In this document: positions 2,087-14,309 of the stretch, piece after piece | Numbering within the stretch: the first letter of the stretch is position 1 | How the letters are laid out: every line of letters begins with the position of its first letter | Origin: a virus | Reading direction: 5' to 3' (one strand) | Virus genome (UHGV): UHGV-0041029 | DNA: 15,376 nucleotides | Made by a program: the position numbers and the translations under genes | Notes under the pieces: model-generated | Databases searched by the model: none | What the model was told of the DNA's origin: nothing | Seen by the model: the letters and a program-made list of their open reading frames with translations, nothing else

Positions 2087-2464
2087 ATGCGTGATATTCA
2101 GATGGTTCTTGAGCGTTGGGGGGCATGGGCGGCTAATAATCATGAAGATGTGACCTGGTCGTCCATTGCCGCCGGTTTTAAGGGATTAATTCCTTCAAAA
2201 GTAAGATCTCGTCCGCAATGCTGTGACGATGACGCGATGATCATTTGTGAATGTATGGCTCGCCTGAAAAAAAACAACAGCGATTTACATGATTTATTGG
2301 TGGACTATTATGTCGGCGGCATGACTTTTATGGCGCTTGCACGTAAGCATGGGCGATCTGATTGTTGGGTTGGCAGGATGCTCCAGAAAGCTGAGGGCGT
2401 AGTGGAGGGCATGCTGATGGTGTTGGATCTCCGATTGGAGATGGATGCTGATTGTTCGAAATAA
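2087..2464 (+). CDS. Putative late-gene antitermination protein Q-like (short Phage_antitermQ-type)
   Basis: 125 aa from the ATG at 2087, with GGAG 7 nt upstream; the track ORF starts at TTG 2072. Position directly downstream of DUF968 and upstream of a terminator and the lysis genes is the canonical Q slot. Cys cluster ([12 protein letters not shown]) and a helix-turn-helix-like C-terminus. Family assignment is by recollection only. Confidence 0.55.
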
Positions 2465-2562
2465 TTAAAGGAAAAGTTGCTGTCTGATTTTCATTAGTCT
2501 AACATTTTAAATGTTGGAATCGCAACGTAGTTATTATCATATAACAGCTTGTTTCCTGATTT

Positions 2563-2593
2563 AGCCAGCCTCCCCAAAGGCTGGTTTTTTTCT
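2563..2593 (+). terminator. Rho-independent terminator downstream of the Q-like gene (candidate tR'-like)
   Basis: Stem ccagcc (2565-2570), loop tccccaaa, stem ggctgg (2579-2584), then a run of 8 T. Lies between the convergent Q-like and lipocalin genes. The - strand reading lacks a U tract, so it acts mainly on + strand transcripts. Confidence 0.65.
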
Positions 2594-2619
2594 AATAAGT
2601 ATCATTTCGGGTGGGGATT

Positions 2620-3144
2620 TTATTGTTTAACCCATAATAGTTCATTGACATTGAATCCCAACTTTTGAGCGGTACGCACATAGTCTGCTTTTACATTATC
2701 TGGAATAGTTTGGGTCCTTGCCAGAATCCATAGGTATTCTCTGTTCGGACCACTGATAAGAGCATACTTATACTCATCATCCAGCTTGATTACATTATAA
2801 CCACCATAGAAGGGGCCAAAAAACGAAACTTTCAACGCTGCAGTTTTAGTATCTCCAGTAAAGTATGCTTTACCTTCGCTCTCGCTCCATTTGTTTTTCG
2901 TTGGATCGTATCCACGGTTAAGTACGCGAATCCCTCCGTCGTTCCGTTTTTCATAAGTAGCGCTGATCTGTTCCAGACCACGTTCGAACCAGTTCTCGAG
3001 GCGAGCTATTTCATACCATTTTCCGAGGTAGCGGTTGGCGTCAAAATTTGTAATCGGCTGCACACCTTTAGGTGGTGTCGGGGCCTTACATGCTATAAGA
3101 GTGAAAGAGAGTGCAATGCCAGTCAACACAGGCCATAACTTCAT
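2620..3144 (-). CDS. blc: Bacterial lipocalin Blc-like outer-membrane lipoprotein
   Basis: 174 aa. N-terminal signal with lipobox (FTLIAC-K). Lipocalin motifs shared with E. coli Blc: NFDANRYLGKWYEIAR, GKAYFTG, AALKVSFFGPFYGGYNVI, YLWILART. AGGA lies 8 nt upstream of the ATG on the - strand. Confidence 0.8.
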   Translation of the reverse strand: MKLWPVLTGIALSFTLIACKAPTPPKGVQPITNFDANRYLGKWYEIARLENWFERGLEQISATYEKRNDGGIRVLNRGYDPTKNKWSESEGKAYFTGDTKTAALKVSFFGPFYGGYNVIKLDDEYKYALISGPNREYLWILARTQTIPDNVKADYVRTAQKLGFNVNELLWVKQ

Positions 3145-3336
3145 AATAAATCCTGTACTTTTGATAGTTGAGAGTAAGTATGAAAGATAGATGAGTACGA
3201 CCGATCACTTAAAGAACTTTCCTACTATATTAGGAATAGTCAATAACAGAAAAATTGTCAGTGATGAAGCCAGAAAGGCAATTTAGTCCGTGCACTACAA
3301 AGTTTATGTGTTAATGAATTAGTCAAGGGGGAGGAA

Positions 3337-4296
3337 ATGATAAAAAAACCTGTGATTGGGATCAGCGGTTGTTTGGGCGGTTCTGCTGTTCGTTTTGATG
3401 GTGGTCACAAAAGAGATGACTTTTTAATGGACAAATTAGTGGAATGGGTAACATTCAGACCAGTATGTCCGGAAATGGCTATAGGGCTGCCAGTTCCGCG
3501 TCCTGCTCTACGACTTGTGCGCTCGAAGCAAGGAAATATACGGATGTGTTTCAGCCACGACCAGAATGAGGATGTGACAGAGAGAATGACAGAGTTTAGT
3601 CGTTCTTATATGGACAAATTAAAGGATGTATCGGGGTTTGTGGTTTGTGCTAAATCTCCCAGCTGTGGCATGGAGCGCGTGCGTGTCTATGATGAAAATG
3701 GTAATCGAGGTCGTAAAGATGGAGTGGGACTATTTACGAGCACTTTGATGGAAAAGTTTTCCTGGCTACCGGTTGAAGAGGATGGGCGATTACATGATCC
3801 AGTGCTTCGTGAGAATTTTATTGAAAGAGTTTTTGCTTTGCATGAGCTCAATCACCTTTACAAGGAGAAATTATCAAGAAGAGAGTTATTAGCTTTTCAT
3901 AGTCGTTATAAGCTTCAGTTGTTGGCGCATAGCCAGGCAGGCTATAAAGATATGGGACCATTTGTGGCTGCAATACACGAGTGGGCGGACCTTGAATCAT
4001 ACTTTGAGGTGTATCGTGATAATCTGATGGCGATTCTCAAAAAACCAGCATCACGTAAAAATCACACGAATGTGCTGATGCATATACAGGGGTATTTTAG
4101 TAATTACTTAAGTACACGCCAGCGTAAAGAGTTGAGCGAGGTTATACTTAACTATCGCTTTGGCACATTGCCTCTTCTTGCGCCGTTGACTCTGCTGAAG
4201 CATTATCTGGGTGAGTATCCTAATGATTACTTGCTTACACAGAATTACTTCGATCCCTATCCGGAAGAACTGGCTCTAAGACTGATGGTGAATTAA
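3337..4296 (+). CDS. DUF523 (TudS-like thio-nucleobase desulfidase domain) fused to DUF1722 (YbgA-like); RudS-like putative tRNA 4-thiouridine desulfidase
   Basis: 319 aa, strong RBS gggggagg before the ATG. N-terminal half has Cys in the pattern expected for the TudS [4Fe-4S] ligands (GISGC at 12, PVCPE at 44, VVCAKSPSCG at 104/110). C-terminal half resembles YbgA/DUF1722. Domain calls are by recollection. Confidence 0.65.
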   Translation: MIKKPVIGISGCLGGSAVRFDGGHKRDDFLMDKLVEWVTFRPVCPEMAIGLPVPRPALRLVRSKQGNIRMCFSHDQNEDVTERMTEFSRSYMDKLKDVSGFVVCAKSPSCGMERVRVYDENGNRGRKDGVGLFTSTLMEKFSWLPVEEDGRLHDPVLRENFIERVFALHELNHLYKEKLSRRELLAFHSRYKLQLLAHSQAGYKDMGPFVAAIHEWADLESYFEVYRDNLMAILKKPASRKNHTNVLMHIQGYFSNYLSTRQRKELSEVILNYRFGTLPLLAPLTLLKHYLGEYPNDYLLTQNYFDPYPEELALRLMVN

Positions 4297-4702
4297 CTGT
4301 ATGCGATATCATCTGAAAGTGATGAGTTCCTGTATGCAGGATATTTACAATCGTAAAAACTACGCTATGATGCTCATAGTATCAGTTTTTATAAAAATCC
4401 TGTTCACGCTAAAGAAAACATTGAGATGCAATTTAATGTTGGTAAACATACCAGCCCCAAACGATTTTATTCAATCTGTTTTTATATGAAGATATTTCAA
4501 GTGAATATTAAGAGCATATAATATTATTATTGCACGCAGCTATTATAATATAACAGATTAGTTTAATGATTTGTTTTTTGTGAGTTAAACACATGGTTTT
4601 ATAGTTGTGATGCAATGAGATTTTCCTTATTGTTGAACTGGCGAATATTGATTTTCCACCTATACTTACCTGGTGTAACCCCAATGATATCAGGTGGATA
4701 AT

Positions 4703-5416
4703 ATGCCATACATATGTTCTATCATTTTGGTGTTGAACTCGTTTGGTGTCCGAATTGGTAAAGAAGATATTTTGTTTAAAAAAGGAAATGCTGTCCTCAT
4801 TGAATACAATTTAAAAGATCTTTTTTCGTCAAATACAGATCATCTAATGATCGTAGATGTTGAGGAGAAAACAGTTAATGATTTCTTTAAAAACTACACA
4901 CTCTCACCTTTTTCTGTAAGAAGGTTTTATCCGTCATACTTGATAGTAGAATGTGAAGATTTTTCATTGTTAAAGAACTTGGTTGCATGCTTGAATTGTG
5001 ATAGCAAAACCGTGGATGTAGTTAGAAATCAAATATCACTTGCATGTCTTGCTGTCTTATCTTCAGAGAAAATAGTGCAAAGTTTTTTGTTCGGAAGTCT
5101 TAATAGCTTAGGTTGTAAAGTTAAGGCTATTATTCACTCGGATATCTCAGCGTCATGGAGACTTTGTGATATATCTTCAAGATTATATATGAGCGAGAGT
5201 TTGTTAAAAAGAAAATTAAAAGACGAAGGATTATCGTTTAGTAAATTAATTCTTGAAGAACGAATGATGATGGCGCAAAGATTATTGATCTACAGTAACC
5301 ATACTGTCGGCAAGGTGGCGGGAATATGCGGGTATGACAATGCATCATATTTTGTAAGTGTTTTTAGAGGATATTTTGGTGTGCCTCCGCACCAATATTT
5401 ATCAAGATTTTCTTAG
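4703..5416 (+). CDS. AraC/XylS-family transcriptional regulator, GadX/AppY/YdeO-like
   Basis: C-terminal double-HTH AraC signature (WRLCDISSRLYMSESLLKRKLKDEGLSFSKLI ... GYDNASYFVSVFRGYFGVPPHQY). Gene and upstream 400 bp are visibly AT-rich. Start is probably the ATG at 4703 (aggtgg upstream); the track ORF starts at GTG 4694. Confidence 0.8.
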   Translation: MPYICSIILVLNSFGVRIGKEDILFKKGNAVLIEYNLKDLFSSNTDHLMIVDVEEKTVNDFFKNYTLSPFSVRRFYPSYLIVECEDFSLLKNLVACLNCDSKTVDVVRNQISLACLAVLSSEKIVQSFLFGSLNSLGCKVKAIIHSDISASWRLCDISSRLYMSESLLKRKLKDEGLSFSKLILEERMMMAQRLLIYSNHTVGKVAGICGYDNASYFVSVFRGYFGVPPHQYLSRFS

Positions 5417-5482
5417 AAGATATGATGTGATGGCATTTTATAAAGTTATTTTTTGAAGTGTAAGATTATACGATATTTTTAG

Positions 5483-5516
5483 CTACGCCAGAATAATTGC
5501 TGGCGTTTTTCTTTTT
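5483..5516 (+). terminator. Rho-independent terminator after the AraC-family gene
   Basis: Stem acgccag (5485-5491), loop aataattg, stem ctggcgt (5500-5506), followed by tttttcttttt. Confidence 0.6.
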
Positions 5517-5606
5517 GAATAGATGTTCGGGCCTTACGCTAATGTAACTTCTTTCCTTCTTCGAACCAAACCGTGTACACCATCCGTTATCTGCGGAGGT
5601 GAGGCT

Positions 5607-5822
5607 ATGAAATCCATGGATAAGTTAACAACGGGCATCGCCTACAGCACCTCTGCAGGCAGTGCTGGCTACTGGTTTTTACAGTTGCTCGATAAAGTCA
5701 CGCCCTCACAGTGGGCGGCAATAGGTGTATTGGGTAGTCTGGTATTTGGCATGCTGACGTATCTGACAAATCTTTATTTCAAGATTAAAGAAGACAGGCG
5801 TAAGGCTGCGAGAGGAGAGTAA
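5607..5822 (+). CDS. essQ: Class II holin / pinholin (phage 21 S21-like) with dual-start motif
   Basis: 71 aa beginning MKSMDK (Met1 and Met4, the S21 antiholin/holin dual start), with ggaggtgagg RBS. Two TM segments and a basic C-terminus ([13 protein letters not shown]). The track ORF at 5523 is an in-frame N-terminal extension without RBS support. Confidence 0.85.
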
Positions 5823-5826
5823 TCCA

Positions 5827-6134
5827 ATGACTCAAGACTATGAACTGGTTGTGAAAGGAGTCCGTAATTTTGAGAATAAAGTTACGGTAACTGTAGCCTT
5901 ACAGGACAAAGAACGCTTTGACGGTGAAATTTTTGGCCTGGATGTCGCCATGGACCGTGTTGAAGGAGCTGCGCTGGAGTTTTATGAGGCAGCAGCCAGA
6001 ATGAGCGTCCGGCAAGTCTTCCTGGAAGTAGCAGAAAAATTGTCAGAAAAAGTTGAGTCTTATCTGCAGCATCAGTACTCCTTTAAGATTGAAAATCCTG
6101 CCAATAAGCACGAGCGTCCTCATCATAAATATCT

Positions 6135-6138
<4 letters not shown>
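5827..6138 (+). CDS. ydfR: Lysis-cassette protein of unknown function, YdfR-like
   Basis: 103 aa, RBS gagaggag. Wedged between holin and endolysin, with its stop overlapping the endolysin start (ATGA). Length and position match ydfR of Qin as recalled. Confidence 0.7.
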
Positions 6139-7162
<1,024 letters not shown>

Positions 7163-7407
7163 ATTAATATTAAATCGGATTATTTTTAGCGCTGAATGTG
7201 AAATTTAAATAAAAAGGACTCTTCCATGAGTCAAAATCCTTGAAATCTTAAGGGTAAGATAAAAGGTCATTAGACAGAATGACACGTTTTATTAATAAAT
7301 AAAGCTATTGTTTCATTCGTGTGTTTTTCTTTACAAAAGTAATCCTTGCTATGGTTGGTTAATCATGCGTTAATGGTGTTCTGGTTTGTTACAAAATTAT
7401 CTGAAGC

Positions 7408-7430
7408 AGTCATTGTTATAATTTTATTAT
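7408..7430 (+). promoter_or_regulatory. Candidate extended -10 promoter (TGnTATAAT) for the cold-shock gene with long 5' UTR
   Basis: tgttataat at 7414-7422 inside an AT-rich leader about 100 nt before the cspI-like start. CspA-family genes typically have long structured 5' UTRs. No convincing -35 seen. Confidence 0.3.
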
Positions 7431-7522
7431 TTGTACCTCTTGAGATTTCCTTGTTGGTTTTTCTCTCTGATATTTTTTTTCGGACCATTCTGCCCAAGGG
7501 CTAACTTCTTCAAAAGGTAATA

Positions 7523-7738
7523 ATGATGTCTAACAAAATGACTGGTTTAGTGAAATGGTTTAACCCTGAAAAAGGTTTTGGTTTCATCACGCCGAAAGAT
7601 GGTAGCAAAGATGTGTTTGTGCATTTCTCAGCTATTCAGAGCAACGATTTCAAAACGTTAACTGAGAATCAGGAAGTCGAATTTGGTATTGAGAACGGAC
7701 CTAAAGGCCCTGCAGCTGTTCATGTAGTGGCACTTTGA
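7523..7738 (+). CDS. cspI: CspA-family cold-shock protein
   Basis: [23 protein letters not shown]...VFVHFSAIQ carries the RNP1/RNP2 cold-shock domain motifs. ATGATG start, so the true start may be 7526 giving 70 aa. Symbol given from Qin-like context (followed by ynfN-like and gnsB-like genes); paralogue identity is not certain. Confidence 0.85.
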
Positions 7739-7942
7739 GGTAGAAAATATTACAAACCATATTCACTTTAGATGCCCGTGTTGCCATGGTTCTCAGTATA
7801 GAACATCATCTTTTGATGTTTCTGACAGAAATCCTTTCGGGGCAAAATGTATCTTTTGTAAATCAATGATGATTACATTTGATAATATTTCACAATACTT
7901 AAATGTTAGCCATCTGTCGTTAGATTTAAGAAAGTGAAAATG

Positions 7943-9480: not shown

Positions 9481-9649
9481 AGTTTTTGCATTTCCATGGC
9501 GGCGGCAGCATGTTTGGTAATTTATTGATAATTAAAAGTTATTTCTCTTTTCACCTGTACAATATTTTTTCTCCCTGTTATTAGACCAGTTTGCAATTAA
9601 TTGAAATATATAAATAAACCTGATTTTCACCTGCCAGATGGAGTTGCTT

Positions 9650-10177
9650 ATGTCAAATGTGAGCGGGATCGGTGATGCTTATTACTGGAGTGTTTTTAAA
9701 ATCGCCGAGGCCTTTGGGCTTCACCGGGACACAGTAAAAAAACGGCTCCTCGCGGCCAACACTCCTGTGGCTGCGACTGTCAGGGGGAACCCCGTTTACG
9801 CCCTGCAGCATGTCGGGCCCGCCCTGTTTAGTGTGAAGCATGAGGCAGCAGACTCTGTTCATGATCCATCCCGTATGGAGCCGAAAGAGAGAAAAGACTG
9901 GTACCAGTCTGAAAATGAAAGGATCAAGCTGGAAAAGGAGCAGCGAAAACTCATCCCAGTTGATGAAGTAGTCATCGTCTATTCGTCCATGAGAAAGGCT
10001 GTCGTCCAGGTTCTGGAGACAATTCCGGATGTTCTTGAACGCGATTGCGCCCTGACTCCTCAGGCCGTCGGCGTTGTACAGCAGGCCATTGATGACCTGC
10101 GATACACTCTTCAGGAAAAATCCTACGAGGCTTGTGCTGCTGAATTAATTCCTGATGAGGAAGGAGAGAGTCTCTAG
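9650..10177 (+). CDS. Terminase small subunit (Nu1-like DNA-packaging protein)
   Basis: About 175 aa from the ATG at 9650 (GGAG 6 nt upstream). N-terminal HTH-like segment (YYWSVFKIAEAFGLHRDTVKKRL), acidic C-terminus, immediately upstream of and coupled to the large terminase. Family call from architecture and context. Confidence 0.65.
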   Translation: MSNVSGIGDAYYWSVFKIAEAFGLHRDTVKKRLLAANTPVAATVRGNPVYALQHVGPALFSVKHEAADSVHDPSRMEPKERKDWYQSENERIKLEKEQRKLIPVDEVVIVYSSMRKAVVQVLETIPDVLERDCALTPQAVGVVQQAIDDLRYTLQEKSYEACAAELIPDEEGESL

Positions 10178-10185
10178 GAGGAATA

Positions 10186-11919
10186 ATGGGTTTTTCATCA
10201 GCCCGAAATTTGGGAAGGGACATATCGGCAGGATTTTCCCCACCACGTCGCATGCCGATTTCGGAGGCTGTTAAAAAATTCATGCGTGTTCCCAAGGGGG
10301 CTGGTAACTCGGTGCCATGGGATCCTGAACTGACACCCTACATCATTGAGCCCATGAACTGCCTGGCATCGCGTGAATACGATGCGGTGATTTTTGTTGG
10401 TCCTGCGCGAACAGGGAAGACCATTGGTCTGATCGATGGATGGATTGTCTATACCATCGTTTGCGATCCTTCGGACATGCTCGTTGTGCAGATGACCGAA
10501 GATAAGGCCCGCGAGCATTCTAAAAAGCGCCTCGACAGAACGTTCAGAAGCAGTGCGGCGGTAAAGAAAAGAATGAGTCCACGTCGTAACGACAATAATG
10601 TCCATGATAAGACGTTCAGGGATGGCTCGTTCCTTAAAATTGGTTGGCCCTCGGTCAACATTATGTCGTCGTCGGATTACCGGTTTGTCGCCTTAACCGA
10701 TTACGACCGTTTTCCGGAGAATATCGACAGCGAGGGTGATGGTTTCTCCCTAGCCTCAAAACGTACCACCACATTTATGTCCGCCGGGATGACTCTGGTG
10801 GAGAGCTCGCCGGGACGTGACATCTGCGACAGCAAATGGCGACGTAAGTCGCCTCATGAAGCGCCACCGACGACTGGTATTCTTTCCCTTTACAATCGTG
10901 GTGACCGCCGCCGCTGGTACTGGCCATGTCCGCACTGCGGTGAATATTTTCAGCCAGCTATGGATGCCATGACCGGCTACCGTAATGAACCGGATCCCTT
11001 TAAAGCCAGTGAGGCGGCGTATCTACTTTGCCCGCACTGCAGCGGCATTATCACTGCGGAGAAAAAGCGTGAGCTCAATAGTGCAGGAGTCTGGTTACGT
11101 GAAGGTCAGGTCATTGATCGTAACGGCAACGTTTCCGGTGAACCGCGCCGCTCCCGTATCGCCAGTTTCTGGATGGAAGGGCCAGCTGCTGCGTATCAGA
11201 CCTGGGCGCAACTGGTTTACAAATTACTGACTGCAGAACAGGAGTATGAAGCGACAGGAAGCGAAGAAACACTCAGGGCGGTTATCAACACCGACTGGGG
11301 ATTACCTTATCTTCCTCGTGCCAGCATGGAGCAACGAAAAAGTGAACTGCTTGAGCAGCGGGCAGAGCCAGTTCCTTCCCGCAGTGTTCCGGATGGCGTT
11401 AATTTCCTTGTGGCGACAGTGGATGTGCAGGCGGGACGTCATCGCCGTTTTGTGGTTCAGGTAACGGGCTATGGCAGCCGTGGCGAACGCTGGATTATTG
11501 ATCGTTACAACATCACGCAGTCATTGCGCAGTGACTGCGACGGGGAGAGCCAGCGAATTGATCCGGCCAGCTATCCGGAAGACTGGGATGTCCTGCTGGG
11601 GAGCTGGTTTTACGACGAACTGACGTATGAAGAGCGGAGCAGTGACGGGAAATGGAGTAAGCCGGGTCGCGGTGCCAACGAAGCTTTTGACCTGATGGTG
11701 TATGCCGAGGCGCTGGTCATTCTGCATGGATACGAAAAGATCCGCTGGCCGGATGCACCGGAGTGGGCGAGCCGGGAAACCTGGCTGGAGTGTGTCCCGG
11801 ACAGTACCGAACCGTCACCCTCACCGGAGCCGGTATCCACGCCTGTTAAAAAACAAAAACGGAAGAAAACAGTAACTGACGATGTTAACCCCTGGCTGAC
11901 TTCCGGAGGATGGTTATGA
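10186..11919 (+). CDS. Terminase large subunit, lambda gpA family
   Basis: 577 aa. Walker A P-loop (VIFVGPARTGKT), Cys-rich motifs (WYWPCPHCGEYF and LLCPHCSGI) comparable to the lambda gpA CPHC region, and a C-terminal nuclease-type region. Confidence 0.85.
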   Translation: MGFSSARNLGRDISAGFSPPRRMPISEAVKKFMRVPKGAGNSVPWDPELTPYIIEPMNCLASREYDAVIFVGPARTGKTIGLIDGWIVYTIVCDPSDMLVVQMTEDKAREHSKKRLDRTFRSSAAVKKRMSPRRNDNNVHDKTFRDGSFLKIGWPSVNIMSSSDYRFVALTDYDRFPENIDSEGDGFSLASKRTTTFMSAGMTLVESSPGRDICDSKWRRKSPHEAPPTTGILSLYNRGDRRRWYWPCPHCGEYFQPAMDAMTGYRNEPDPFKASEAAYLLCPHCSGIITAEKKRELNSAGVWLREGQVIDRNGNVSGEPRRSRIASFWMEGPAAAYQTWAQLVYKLLTAEQEYEATGSEETLRAVINTDWGLPYLPRASMEQRKSELLEQRAEPVPSRSVPDGVNFLVATVDVQAGRHRRFVVQVTGYGSRGERWIIDRYNITQSLRSDCDGESQRIDPASYPEDWDVLLGSWFYDELTYEERSSDGKWSKPGRGANEAFDLMVYAEALVILHGYEKIRWPDAPEWASRETWLECVPDSTEPSPSPEPVSTPVKKQKRKKTVTDDVNPWLTSGGWL

Positions 11920-11960
11920 ATCAGAATGATATTGAAGCCATGATTCAGCGTTATGGGTGA
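11916..11960 (+). pseudogene. 5' stub (14 codons) of the gene that followed terminase, truncated by deletion
   Basis: ATG overlaps the terminase stop (ATGA), typical coupling for the next head gene. The frame stops after MNQNDIEAMIQRYG, where tape-measure homology begins in another frame. Confidence 0.3.
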
Positions 11961-12798
11961 TCAGCAGCGGCAGCGATATCAGGTACAACTGAGTCTTCGC
12001 CAGAAATACCAGCAACAGCTGGAGCAGTTGAGGCGGGATAGTGAGCAGAAAGGAATATATAACACGGATGACTACAGAAAGGCCGAGCAGGCGCTGACGG
12101 AGAGCCTGAACCGACAACTGAATGAGAATCGCCGTTACTGGCAACAGCTTGAAGTTGTGCAGGGTAACTGGAAAAACGGAGTCCTGCGTGCATTTCAGAA
12201 TTTTACCGTGGATGCAGATAATACGGCAGGAACAGCAGAACAGGTGTTCTCGTCAGCCTTCAGCAACATGGGAAATGGCCTAGCAACTTTTGTCACTACC
12301 GGCAAACTCAATTTCAAATCCTTCACCTCTTCTGTGCTGTCAGATATGGCGAAAATCCTGGCGCAGGCAACCATGATGAAATCGATAAAAGGGATTGGCA
12401 GTGTACTGGGATTTGATCTCAGCAGCCTTTCCCTGAATGCCAATGGGGGGATTTATCAGTCTGCTGATTTGAGTCGTTACAGTGGCACGGTGGTTAACCG
12501 TCCGACGTTTTTTGCTTTTGCAAAAGGCGCGGGTGTGATGGGGGAAGCGGGACCTGAAGCCATTCTGCCACTGCGTCGTGGTGCTGACGGTAAGCTGGGG
12601 GTTGTGGCGGATATTGGTGGTTCAGGTATGGCGATGTTTGCCCCGCAGTACAACATCGAGATCAATAACGATGGCACGAACGGGCAGATAGGTCCGGCTG
12701 CCCTGAAGGTGGTTTATGACCTCGGGAAAAAAGCGGCAGCGGACTTTATGCAACAGCAGGCCCGTGATGGTGGTCGGTTAAGTGGAGCATATCGGTAA
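11953..12798 (+). pseudogene. C-terminal fragment (about 280 aa) of a lambda-like tail tape measure protein (gpH)
   Basis: The C-terminus (NIEINNDGTNGQIGPAALKVVYD...ARDGGRLSGAYR) parallels the lambda gpH C-terminus (VINNDGTNGQIGPAALKAVYD...MRDGGLFSGGGR). The stop overlaps the gpM start (TAATG). No N-terminal 500+ aa present. Confidence 0.8.
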
Positions 12799-13127
12799 TG
12801 GAGACGTTTCACTGGAAAGTGCGCCCGGATATGAATGTGGTATCAGAGCCGAAAGTGGTGACAGTGAAGCTGGGCGATGGTTATGAACAGCGTCGTGCGG
12901 CGGGACTGAATAACCAGTTGTCGATTTACAGCGTGACGATACGTGTTCGTAAATGTGAACACCCATCTTTAAAAGCCTTTCTGGAACGGCACGGTGGCGT
13001 CCGCGCATTTCAGTGGACGCCACCTTATGACTGGAAGCCGATCAGGGTGGTTTGTCGTAAATGGTCGGCAAGCGTGGGGGCGCTGTGGGTAACCATAACG
13101 GCAGATTTTGAACAGGTCGTGGCATAG
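12798..13127 (+). CDS. Minor tail protein M (lambda gpM homologue)
   Basis: 109 aa, METFHWKVRPDMNVVSEPKVV...EFQWTPPYDWKPIRVVCRKWSA...DFEQVVA, collinear with lambda gpM and the same length. Confidence 0.85.
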   Translation: METFHWKVRPDMNVVSEPKVVTVKLGDGYEQRRAAGLNNQLSIYSVTIRVRKCEHPSLKAFLERHGGVRAFQWTPPYDWKPIRVVCRKWSASVGALWVTITADFEQVVA

Positions 13128-13136
13128 GAGGCCCTG

Positions 13137-13409
13137 ATGCAGGATATTTCACAGGAAACACATCATGAGACGACACGCCTCACTCAGTCAGCCCAGGTGG
13201 TGCTCTGGGAAATCGATCTGACCGAGGTAGGCGGGGATCGCTACTTTTTCTGTAATGAGCAGAACGAAAAAGGTGAGTCTGTCACCTGGCAGAGTCGGCA
13301 GTATCAGGCCTATCCCATTCAGGGGAGTGGATTTGAGATGAACGGCAAGGGCAGTGCTGCCCGTCCGACACTGACGGTCTCTAACCTGCACGGCATGATC
13401 ACCGGGATG
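13137..13409 (+). pseudogene. N-terminal fragment (about 91 aa) of minor tail protein L (lambda gpL homologue)
   Basis: MQDISQETHHETTRLTQSAQVVLWEIDLTEVGGDRYFFCNEQNEKGESVTWQSRQYQAYPIQGSGFEMNGKG...TLTVSNLHGMITGM matches the lambda gpL N-terminus. Homology stops near 13409; the open frame runs on to 13523 through unrelated sequence, which is gpJ read out of frame. Confidence 0.8.
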
Positions 13410-13876
13410 GGAATACCAACATCGCCGGTGTCACGGTGGTGTTCCGGGCTGGTGAGCAGGAGCAGACTCCGCCGGAGGGATTTGAATCCTCCGGCTCCGA
13501 GACGGTGTTGGGTACGGAAGTGAAATACGACACGCCGATCACCCGCGCCATCACGTCGGCAAACATCGACCGTCTGCGCTTTACCTTCGGTGTGCAGGCA
13601 CTGGTGGAAACCACCTCAAAGGGGGACCGGAATCCGTCGGAAGTTCGCCTGCTGGTTCAGATACAGCGTAATGGTGGCTGGGTGACGGAAAAAGACATCA
13701 CCATTAAGGGCAAAACCACCTCGCAGTATCTGGCCTCGGTGGTGGTGGATAACCTGCCGCCGCGCCCGTTTAATATCCGGATGCGCAGAATGACGCCGGA
13801 CAGCACCACAGACCAGCTGCAGAACAAAACGCTCTGGTCGTCATACACCGAAATCATCGATGTGAAACAGTGCTAT
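13409..13876 (+). pseudogene. Internal fragment of tail tip/host-specificity protein J (lambda gpJ, about residues 55-220)
   Basis: NTNIAGVTVVFRAGEQEQTPPEGFESSGSETVLGTEVKYDTPITR...[18 protein letters not shown] is near-identical to the lambda gpJ N-terminal region as recalled. It lacks the gpJ start and the C-terminal 900 or so residues. Confidence 0.8.
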
Positions 13877-14309
13877 TCCAGCTGGCTTCGTGGCTGTTTT
13901 CAACAGTGATGAGTCATCGTGGCATCTCGTTGAAGATCATCGGGGTAAAACGGTTTATGACGTGGCTTCCGGCGACGCGTTATTTATTTCTGAACTCGGC
14001 TCATTACCGGAAAATGTCACCTGGTTATCCCCGGAAGGGGAGTTTCAGAAGTGGAACGGCACAGCCTGGGTGAAAGATGCAGAAGCAGAAAAACTATTCC
14101 GGATCCGGGAGGCGGAAGAAACAAAAAACAGCCTGATGCAGGCAGCGAATGAGCATATTGCGCCACTTCAGGATGCTGTAGATCTGGAAATCGCAACGGA
14201 GGAAGAAAACTCGTTGCTGGAAGCCTGGAAAAAGTATCGGGTGTTGCTGAACCGTGTTAATACAACAACTGCACCGGATATTGAATGGCCAGTAGCACCT
14301 ATAGGGTAA
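13875..14309 (+). pseudogene. C-terminal fragment of tail fibre assembly protein (Tfa family)
   Basis: [67 protein letters not shown]... matches Tfa proteins (TfaQ/TfaE-like). Homology starts abruptly at the gpJ junction, so the N-terminal 50-60 residues are missing. An in-frame GTG/ATG could still allow a truncated product. Confidence 0.75.

Follow-up and report, generated by a model that had tools for sequence, protein, structure and literature searches.

A probably composite blc-rudS-araC cargo cassette between Q and the holin of Escherichia coli lambdoid prophages

The window analysed here is a 15,376-nucleotide (15.4-kb) stretch of viral DNA, the genome UHGV-0041029, which represents a decayed Qin-type lambdoid prophage of Escherichia coli. 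Between its late antiterminator Q and its holin are located three genes, encoding a Blc-like outer-membrane lipocalin lipoprotein (blc), a RudS-like protein predicted to remove the sulfur of 4-thiouridine (s4U) from transfer RNA (tRNA), and a regulator of the AraC family. Based on profile searches, comparisons to prophages, phages and bacterial chromosomes, and estimates of selection, we consider it likely that these genes constitute a composite moron, i.e. a lysogenic-conversion cassette, at the classic lambdoid cargo site, which operates in the manner proposed in the Discussion.

Three cargo genes inside the prophage

Pfam and NCBIfam profile searches agree with the original prediction, made from the window's letters only, that the three open reading frames (ORFs) code for a Blc-like lipocalin, a RudS-like DUF523/DUF1722 protein and an AT-rich AraC-type regulator (Table 1). 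The placement of these genes between a Q-like antiterminator and the holin holds as well, and the limits then given for the cargo, 2594-5520, fit the DNA, with a tR'-like terminator ending at about 2594 and a second hairpin preceding the holin. In PHROGs, all three proteins are assigned to phage families of 'unknown function'. The window starts with HokD, Rem, YdfU (DUF968) and Q, followed by the three-gene cargo and a P21-type holin, after which YdfR (DUF1327), a lysozyme, an Rz-like protein (DUF2514) and CspI with a thermoregulator leader are encoded; it ends with a small terminase subunit, a shortened large terminase, tail-gene fragments and a tail-fibre assembly gene. With phage genes on either side, the cargo is thus located inside the prophage.

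Distribution, mobility and linkage to one late-control allele

The 3058-bp interval from Q to the holin matches 1154 of 5426 complete E. coli genomes (~21%) and is absent from ~79%. Most carriers (883 of 1154) match over at least 80% of the interval length, and three allele classes can be distinguished, at at least 99%, ~94% and ~91% identity. The cassette is found in a near-complete Qin-type prophage beside rspB (L001), in a lambda-type prophage beside the bio operon and in a third, lambda-like prophage with iss/bor, as well as in the phage isolates 1H12, IdasGreatGrand and ten Lambda_* phages (Lambda_ev*) from infant guts. A comparison of Q-to-S regions across E. coli prophages, suggested as a check in the original prediction, thereby returns the same gene order in at least three backbones. 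Likewise, 36 of 42 IMG/VR viral contigs with a close RudS carry the cassette, scored as blc or the regulator beside rudS, and the order Q-blc(-)-rudS-araC-holin is constant in those IMG/VR loci that provide enough sequence. We note that two of 1217 cassette places are on records classed as plasmids, which may be phage-plasmids or misassigned replicons.

Homology among the cassette-bearing prophages extends from 2045-2052, just 5' of Q, into the holin, and the 155-bp pR'/tR' segment (2465-2619) is present in 1113 genomes, approximately the same set as the cassette. Hence, Q, the promoter region and the cargo travel as one module. Other prophages have different contents at this place: Qin of K-12 shares ydfU up to 2069 and essQ from 5578, with another Q and cspF/cspB in-between, and DLP12 is arranged quuD-nmpC-essD, with a related Q (84% nucleotide identity) and with homology breaks at 2446 and 5587. 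The cassette is therefore dispensable cargo in a known cargo site. As for stx in Shiga toxin (Stx) phages, nmpC in DLP12 and cspB/cspF in Qin, it follows Q/pR'/tR' and precedes the holin, and is likewise dispensable and varying between related prophages. However, it contains no toxin, porin or cold-shock gene, but three genes, one of them on the opposite strand, and differs further in being strictly tied to one Q21-type Q/pR' allele. In Stx phages, sense-strand cargo between Q and S is co-transcribed with the late genes.

Selection and intactness

Between the window and the 1H12 allele, the ratio of non-synonymous to synonymous divergence (dN/dS) is 0.11 for blc (synonymous divergence, dS, 0.21), 0.14 for rudS (dS 0.29) and 0.21 for the regulator (dS 0.59); the corresponding values are 0.08 for Q (dS 0.26) and 0.09 for the holin (dS 0.69). 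In viral loci, 32 of 34 copies of blc, 34 of 35 of rudS and 22 of 27 of the regulator gene are intact, and in two of the three E. coli contexts that were opened (L002, L003) the regulator is annotated as frameshifted, making it the most divergent and most often disrupted member of the cassette. Taken together, low dN/dS and high intactness indicate that the genes are maintained by selection, with the regulator being the most expendable. The earlier suggestion of a lysogenic-conversion module is in agreement with this purifying selection, with the high intactness and with the presence of other cargo in related prophages.

Origin of the cassette

Homologues of RudS with 66-76% identity occur in Citrobacter, Enterobacter, Leclercia, Lelliottia, Kluyvera, Klebsiella, Raoultella and others, and a scan of one genome per bacterial species yielded 41 loci. 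In 24 of these, a lipocalin 67-79% identical to phage Blc is encoded 5' of rudS on the opposite strand. About 20 loci, in Enterobacter, Leclercia, Lelliottia and relatives, are organised as blc (minus strand), an MlrA-like merR gene, optionally a transthyretin-like gene (ttr), and rudS (e.g. L019, 5019-7960; the arrangement blc-merR-ttr-rudS also in L016, L023-L028, L031-L035, L039, L040, L044, L047 and L048), while Citrobacter sedlakii displays a direct blc-rudS junction with a spacer of 188 bp versus 192 bp in the window. The conservation of this chromosomal linkage hints at a shared stress regulon. The published example of a MerR-RudS arrangement is orf242-orf319 of Salmonella, and the retrieved passages of the RudS paper (Jamontas et al. 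2024, PMC11417400) make no mention of a chromosomal lipocalin-RudS linkage.

The phage cassette resembles the blc, merR, transthyretin and rudS locus in the divergent arrangement and the orientation of blc and rudS, but lacks merR and the transthyretin gene and has an unrelated AraC regulator in addition. No homologue of this regulator was detected in the 41 chromosomal rudS loci, and no remnants of merR or of the transthyretin gene were found in the intergenic regions of the window. The GC (guanine plus cytosine) fraction amounts to 0.48-0.56 in the flanking phage genes, 0.38-0.46 over blc and rudS and 0.31-0.35 over 4200-5600. That the closer lipocalins are linked to rudS, that the loci are devoid of an AraC gene, and that GC content differs within the cargo (31-35% versus 42-46%) together lead us to regard the cassette as composite: judging from these sequence comparisons, the blc-rudS pair was captured, without its MerR regulator, from a locus on enterobacterial chromosomes, and the AT-rich regulator gene, of separate origin by the same comparisons, was joined to it.

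The lipocalin and the blc-rudS intergenic region

The blc product passes the NCBIfam model 'outer membrane lipoprotein Blc' (NF007786) with 310.7 bits against a cutoff of 267, and is matched by the Blc structures 3MBT and 1QWD of the PDB at ~1e-66. Its N-terminus, MKLWPVLTGIALSFTLIAC|KAP, features the lipobox LIAC with Cys19 and a lysine rather than an aspartate at position +2, as read from the sequence without a signal-peptide predictor. E. coli Blc binds lysophospholipids and fatty acids and is expressed in stationary phase or under stress. This chromosomal protein (b4149, adjoining ampC) has the Lipocalin_2 fold and the lipoprotein signal in common with phage Blc. However, phage Blc is 57% identical to the K-12 protein in a whole-length alignment but 75-78% identical to another lipocalin, which is linked to rudS in Enterobacter, Leclercia and Citrobacter sedlakii, so that the phage gene is orthologous to this second lipocalin and was not copied from the host blc. 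As a moron, blc has been described in more than 50% of 19 gut lambda phages (Mathieu et al. 2020, PMC6969025).

The region separating blc and rudS is ~95% conserved among the cassette alleles, and the promoters of both genes are presumed to be located here, from gene orientation only. Two inverted repeats are conserved, TTCCTACTA/TATTAGGAA at 3219-3236 and AAATTG-21 nt-CAATTT at 3252-3284, which represent possible operator sites. The second superficially resembles what we take to be an MlrA-type site, a similarity that was given no weight. When a shared operator was sought, the Citrobacter chromosomal blc-rudS intergenic region could not be aligned with that of the window. A strong Shine-Dalgarno sequence, GGGGGAGG, precedes the rudS ATG.

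RudS

In RudS, PF04463 (DUF523/2-thiouracil desulfurase) covers residues 7-149 (5.5e-40) and PF08349 (DUF1722) residues 192-309 (7.2e-40). Cysteines are found at positions 12, 44 and 110, plus 71 and 104, of which Cys12, Cys44 and Cys110 are given as [4Fe-4S] cluster ligands of RudS_vir and RudS_ST in the RudS paper (PMC11417400, Table 1). RudS_vir (H3V29_gp66) of Escherichia phage 1H12 is 92% identical to the window protein and agrees with it in length, in the TudS plus DUF1722 architecture and in the three ligand cysteines, while the window copy differs as a separate allele (dS 0.29); 1H12 carries the same Q-blc-rudS-araC-holin cassette. RudS_vir was produced from a synthesised rudS of phage 1H12 and its overexpression lowered s4U in tRNA, and overexpressed RudS_KT of Pseudomonas putida shortened the growth delay caused by ultraviolet A (UVA) light (Jamontas et al. 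2024, PMC11417400). At 92% identity to RudS_vir, the window RudS is predicted to remove s4U, too. The paper treats the enzyme in isolation and does not contain the word 'lipocalin'; in its retrieved passages there is no mention of the regulator neighbour or of the position between Q and S.

A second lambdoid lineage (IMG/VR contigs L086-L091, e.g. L088, 5001-5960) has rudS alone, 72% identical and without a blc or AraC gene beside it. In these contigs rudS is positioned in the early, nin-like region, between DnaT/DnaC-like/DUF977 genes and RusA, DUF968 and a 44-45% identical Q, and reads in the direction of the replication genes, RusA and Q. Here, rudS seems to have been captured independently by temperate phages.

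The E. coli B lineage, including BL21 derivatives (L094, i.e. C41(DE3), 3623-6212; also H69, H89 and H91), has the same Q and an intact blc, and its rudS is cut after ~49 codons beside an insertion sequence (IS) of the IS3 type, with most of the gene lost. BL21(DE3) was the host of the published RudS UVA assay (PMC11417400).

The AraC regulator

The start of the regulator gene is at 4694 or 4703 (237-240 residues), the latter following RefSeq, where a copy with 99.9% identity is annotated in this way. Its best NCBIfam matches are YdeO and GadX, far below the equivalog cutoffs, and both were rejected as orthologues (112.3 bits versus 348 for YdeO, 89.9 versus 500 for GadX); AppY, at 30% identity, is a relative rather than an orthologue. 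In full-length alignments identity is 33% to GadW and 29% to YdeO, and 48% to ECs_0287, an AraC-type protein of prophage Sp1 of strain Sakai and the closest studied relative. Of the label GadX/AppY-like in the original prediction, the assignment to the AraC family thus stands and the closeness to GadX and AppY does not, the Sakai counterpart of PatE being closer. The family is narrow, with every hit that has a source name originating from E. coli; its alleles are 99, 85 and 76% identical, and an unnamed E. coli AraC protein of 265 residues (P0026) is 35% identical to the window regulator.

PatE, PsrA and PsrB are established prophage-encoded AraC-like regulators of enterohaemorrhagic E. coli, of which PatE and PsrB activate gadE/hdeA (review, PMC10877973), and patE (Z0321) is RpoS-dependent. 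The window regulator is similar to PatE (Z0321, CP-933H/Sp1) and PsrA/PsrB in being prophage-borne, in its length of ~240 residues, in a C-terminal AraC helix-turn-helix (HTH) and in the AT-richness of its gene, and displays the hallmarks of this type, i.e. a double C-terminal HTH, a GadX/YdeO-like N-terminal domain, ~240-250 residues and a prophage origin. However, it is located in the Q-S interval by blc and rudS, and not at a prophage end or beside effector loci. The spacer that precedes it varies among alleles, and in the 1H12-type allele homology breaks between 4511 and 4608.

The late-control region

The Q ORF in the ORF listing is 2072-2464 with a TTG start, and the annotated start corresponds to 2087. 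The protein matches the Q21 structures 6P18 and 6JNX (phmmer) and is annotated as 'antiterminator Q family protein' in the 99.9% identical copy. The tR'-like terminator is ~100 nt 3' of the Q stop codon, the position expected for tR', and folds with -14.9 kcal/mol (z = -4.2; none of 200 shuffles folds as well), while the hairpin in front of the holin reaches -11.3 kcal/mol (z = -2.7). The holin ORF spans 5523-5822, the annotated gene, of 71 residues, being shorter (Table 1); it is annotated as essD in the Qin-type prophage L001. Promoter-like sites are not in excess in the region (11 found versus 10.1 +/- 3.6 in shuffled sequence), and a scan of the whole window at Rfam gathering thresholds gave no known RNA within the cassette, its only hits being those at 7368-7784 and 14071-14269 described below.

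Table 1 Features of the cassette and its borders in the window
Feature	Position	Strand	Basis
Q21-family late antiterminator Q, 125 aa, PF06530	2087-2464	+	Pfam 8e-51
Candidate pR' no. 1, TGGAGA-18-AATAAT	2436-2465	+	consensus scan, 9/12 matches
Candidate pR' no. 2, TTGCTG-17-TAACAT	2477-2505	+	read by eye, 7/12 matches
tR'-like intrinsic terminator	2563-2594	+	G+C-rich 9-bp stem then T-run
blc-like outer-membrane lipocalin lipoprotein gene, 174 aa	2620-3144	-	Pfam Lipocalin_2 (PF08212) 2.5e-42
blc-rudS intergenic region, 192 bp, between divergent genes	3145-3336		
rudS, TudS(DUF523)-DUF1722 fusion, predicted [4Fe-4S] tRNA 4-thiouridine desulfidase, 319 aa	3337-4296	+	
AT-rich spacer, ~31% GC, variable among alleles	4297-4702		
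Promoter-like site TTTACA-16-TATGAT	4344-4371		consensus scan, 10/12 matches, best in region
PatE-like AraC-family regulator gene, 237 aa	4703-5416	+	HTH_18 and HTH_AraC domains
Terminator-like hairpin between regulator gene and holin	5485-5510	+	7-bp stem and T-run
Class II (P21-type) holin EssQ/EssD, first lysis gene, right cassette boundary	5607-5822	+	PF04971 6e-34

Discussion

As to expression and phenotype, we infer the following working of the cassette. In the lysogen, transcripts from pR' would halt at the tR'-like terminator, and the three genes would therefore depend on promoters of their own. Blc would reach the outer membrane as a lipoprotein and contribute to lipid homeostasis of the envelope, and RudS would strip the sulfur of s4U from host tRNA, resulting in less near-UV (ultraviolet) crosslinking of tRNA and less growth delay. 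In analogy to PatE and PsrA/B, the regulator may activate gadE and hdeAB, genes for acid resistance of the host, and it is probably kept silent before stress or stationary phase sets in, as suggested by the RpoS dependence of patE. Upon induction, Q-modified RNA polymerase would cross tR', the 3-kb cassette and the hairpin at 5485-5510 and continue into the holin, generating a late transcript that contains rudS and the regulator in sense and blc in antisense; through this read-through, the former two genes would be transcribed late as well, comparable to stx in Stx phages. Late transcription across the cassette is expected from lambdoid biology and the gene layout, because in functional relatives such as 1H12 the lysis genes on the 3' side must be reached through it.

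Several observations weigh against this proposal. A divergent promoter region had been predicted at 3145-3336, yet no match to the sigma-70 consensus was detected there at the scan threshold, and both pR' candidates are weak (7-9 of 12 consensus matches). Since the prophage is decayed, late induction may no longer occur in the window's own strain. According to the RudS paper (PMC11417400), the tRNA desulfidase activity of RudS_vir is lower than that of other RudS proteins despite good expression; RudS_vir could therefore have a small physiological effect or act on another substrate in reality. Disruption of the regulator in about one-fifth of its copies suggests that its benefit is conditional, and with an identity of only 48% to the Sakai counterpart of PatE, common targets are not guaranteed. 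This counterpart, ECs_0287, is equated with PatE by position in Sp1/CP-933H and not by the sequence of PatE.

Four other explanations were weighed against the lysogenic-conversion cassette. Lambdoid prophages are induced by UV, and near-UV light crosslinks s4U8 to C13 in tRNA, stalling translation. Accordingly, rudS might chiefly be a lytic helper, with the late transcript, or the early one in the other lineage, keeping new tRNA s4U-free in irradiated cells. In favour of this, rudS is in sense to the late transcript and directly 5' of the lysis genes, the lineage L086-L091 has independently obtained a 72% identical rudS in its early region, the phage gene, without MerR, needs phage-supplied or constitutive transcription, and RudS overexpression shortens the UVA growth delay (PMC11417400). 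Nevertheless, the comparatively low activity of RudS_vir reported in the same paper, the fact that repair of already crosslinked tRNA by RudS is not known, and the shortness of the late phase relative to tRNA turnover make such a role rather unlikely, and a benefit to the host fits better with a cassette that is intact in many defective prophages, including that of the window. The two readings are not mutually exclusive. The explanation that the genes are core chromosomal genes flanking the prophage rather than cargo has practically no chance left: nothing was found in its support, although other Enterobacteriaceae have blc and rudS homologues on their chromosomes, and it is refuted by the phage genes on both sides, the occurrence in several prophage backbones with several attachment sites, the free phages with packaged genomes, and the ~79% of genomes without the block.

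The remaining two explanations concern phage-phage competition and chance. Cor and Llp are lipoproteins that exclude superinfecting phages via the receptor or the envelope, and many lambdoid morons encode outer-membrane proteins. The Blc-like lipoprotein could similarly mask or alter a receptor or the envelope, with the other genes being accessory, and its lipobox, its location on the opposite strand and its independent transcription are compatible with this, as is the predominance of membrane proteins among lambda morons (Mathieu et al., PMC6969025). However, the three proteins have no match among the PADLOC defence models, Blc has no tie to a known phage receptor, and its orthology (75-78%) to a chromosomal housekeeping-type lipocalin argues for an inherited physiological role, so that we regard exclusion as improbable. 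Non-functional genes that are merely carried along by recombination of the late module between Q and the lysis genes would account for the strict linkage to one Q/pR' allele, for a regulator that is frameshifted or disrupted in a sizeable minority, and for the IS3-associated loss of most of rudS in E. coli B. Such hitch-hiking is even harder to uphold than exclusion, given dN/dS values of 0.11-0.21 at substantial synonymous divergence, blc and rudS being intact in 94-97% of viral loci, and the independent acquisition of rudS by another phage lineage.

A more specific idea, which we likewise consider rather unlikely, is that the cassette is a near-UV and photo-oxidative stress module. Q-dependent RudS would erase host s4U at UV induction and thereby spare late translation from the brake imposed by s4U crosslinks and the stringent response, with Blc shielding the lipids of the envelope and the PatE-like regulator reprogramming stress genes of the host. 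If this is true, the independent acquisition of rudS represents convergent selection for phage control of tRNA modification.

With respect to novelty, neither the site nor the kind of cargo nor any of the gene families is new, and two components have been published from this very cassette. The earlier judgement that the combination is undescribed appears to hold for the three-gene unit, but novelty was overstated, as the blc moron, the RudS of 1H12 and the PatE/Psr class of regulators are all published. In the searched open-access literature, no paper was found that treats the three genes as one unit; a paper on the phiv142-3 prophage of avian pathogenic E. coli and two other hits proved irrelevant to the combination. 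What appears to be new is that the three genes form a constant unit tied to a single Q21-type late-control allele, that this unit is found in ~21% of complete E. coli genomes, that it derives from the enterobacterial blc-merR-ttr-rudS locus, and that another phage lineage has captured rudS independently.

The cassette hence represents a common, overlooked share of the accessory stress repertoire of E. coli, present in about one in five complete genomes. E. coli is described as being without RudS homologues in the RudS paper (PMC11417400); this is true of K-12, whereas E. coli B keeps a stump and 1154 of 5426 genomes match the cassette. Studies of near-UV or solar disinfection and of tRNA thiolation in E. 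coli should consequently take prophage status into account. With phage 1H12 and its relatives, a natural system is at hand for asking whether a temperate phage gains from editing the tRNA modification of its host, and the regulator forms a new branch of the PatE/Psr group, the prophage regulators connected to acid resistance of the host. The understanding of lambdoid phages is left unchanged by these solid but fairly ordinary phage-borne host-fitness genes.

Other features of the window

The structural region (9638-14309) is heavily deleted, and the prophage of the window is therefore defective. The small terminase gene (9638-10177) is followed by a large-terminase ORF of 577 residues, compared to ~700 in the intact relative L001, and on its 3' side are an ORF of 281 residues, short tail-gene ORFs and the tail-fibre assembly gene. 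ARAGORN found no tRNA genes in the window; such genes are carried between Q and S by some Stx phages. On the 3' side of the lysis genes is another AT-rich stretch of cargo, comprising cspI, ynfQ, ynfN and a gnsB-like gene, and a cspA thermoregulator leader (RF01766, 110 bits; 7368-7784, plus strand) is positioned 5' of cspI (7523/7526-7738). A full-length Rfam match to IS009 (RF02111, 212 bits) at 14071-14269 on the plus strand overlaps the 3' part of ORF 13890-14309, the expected place of the tail-fibre assembly gene.

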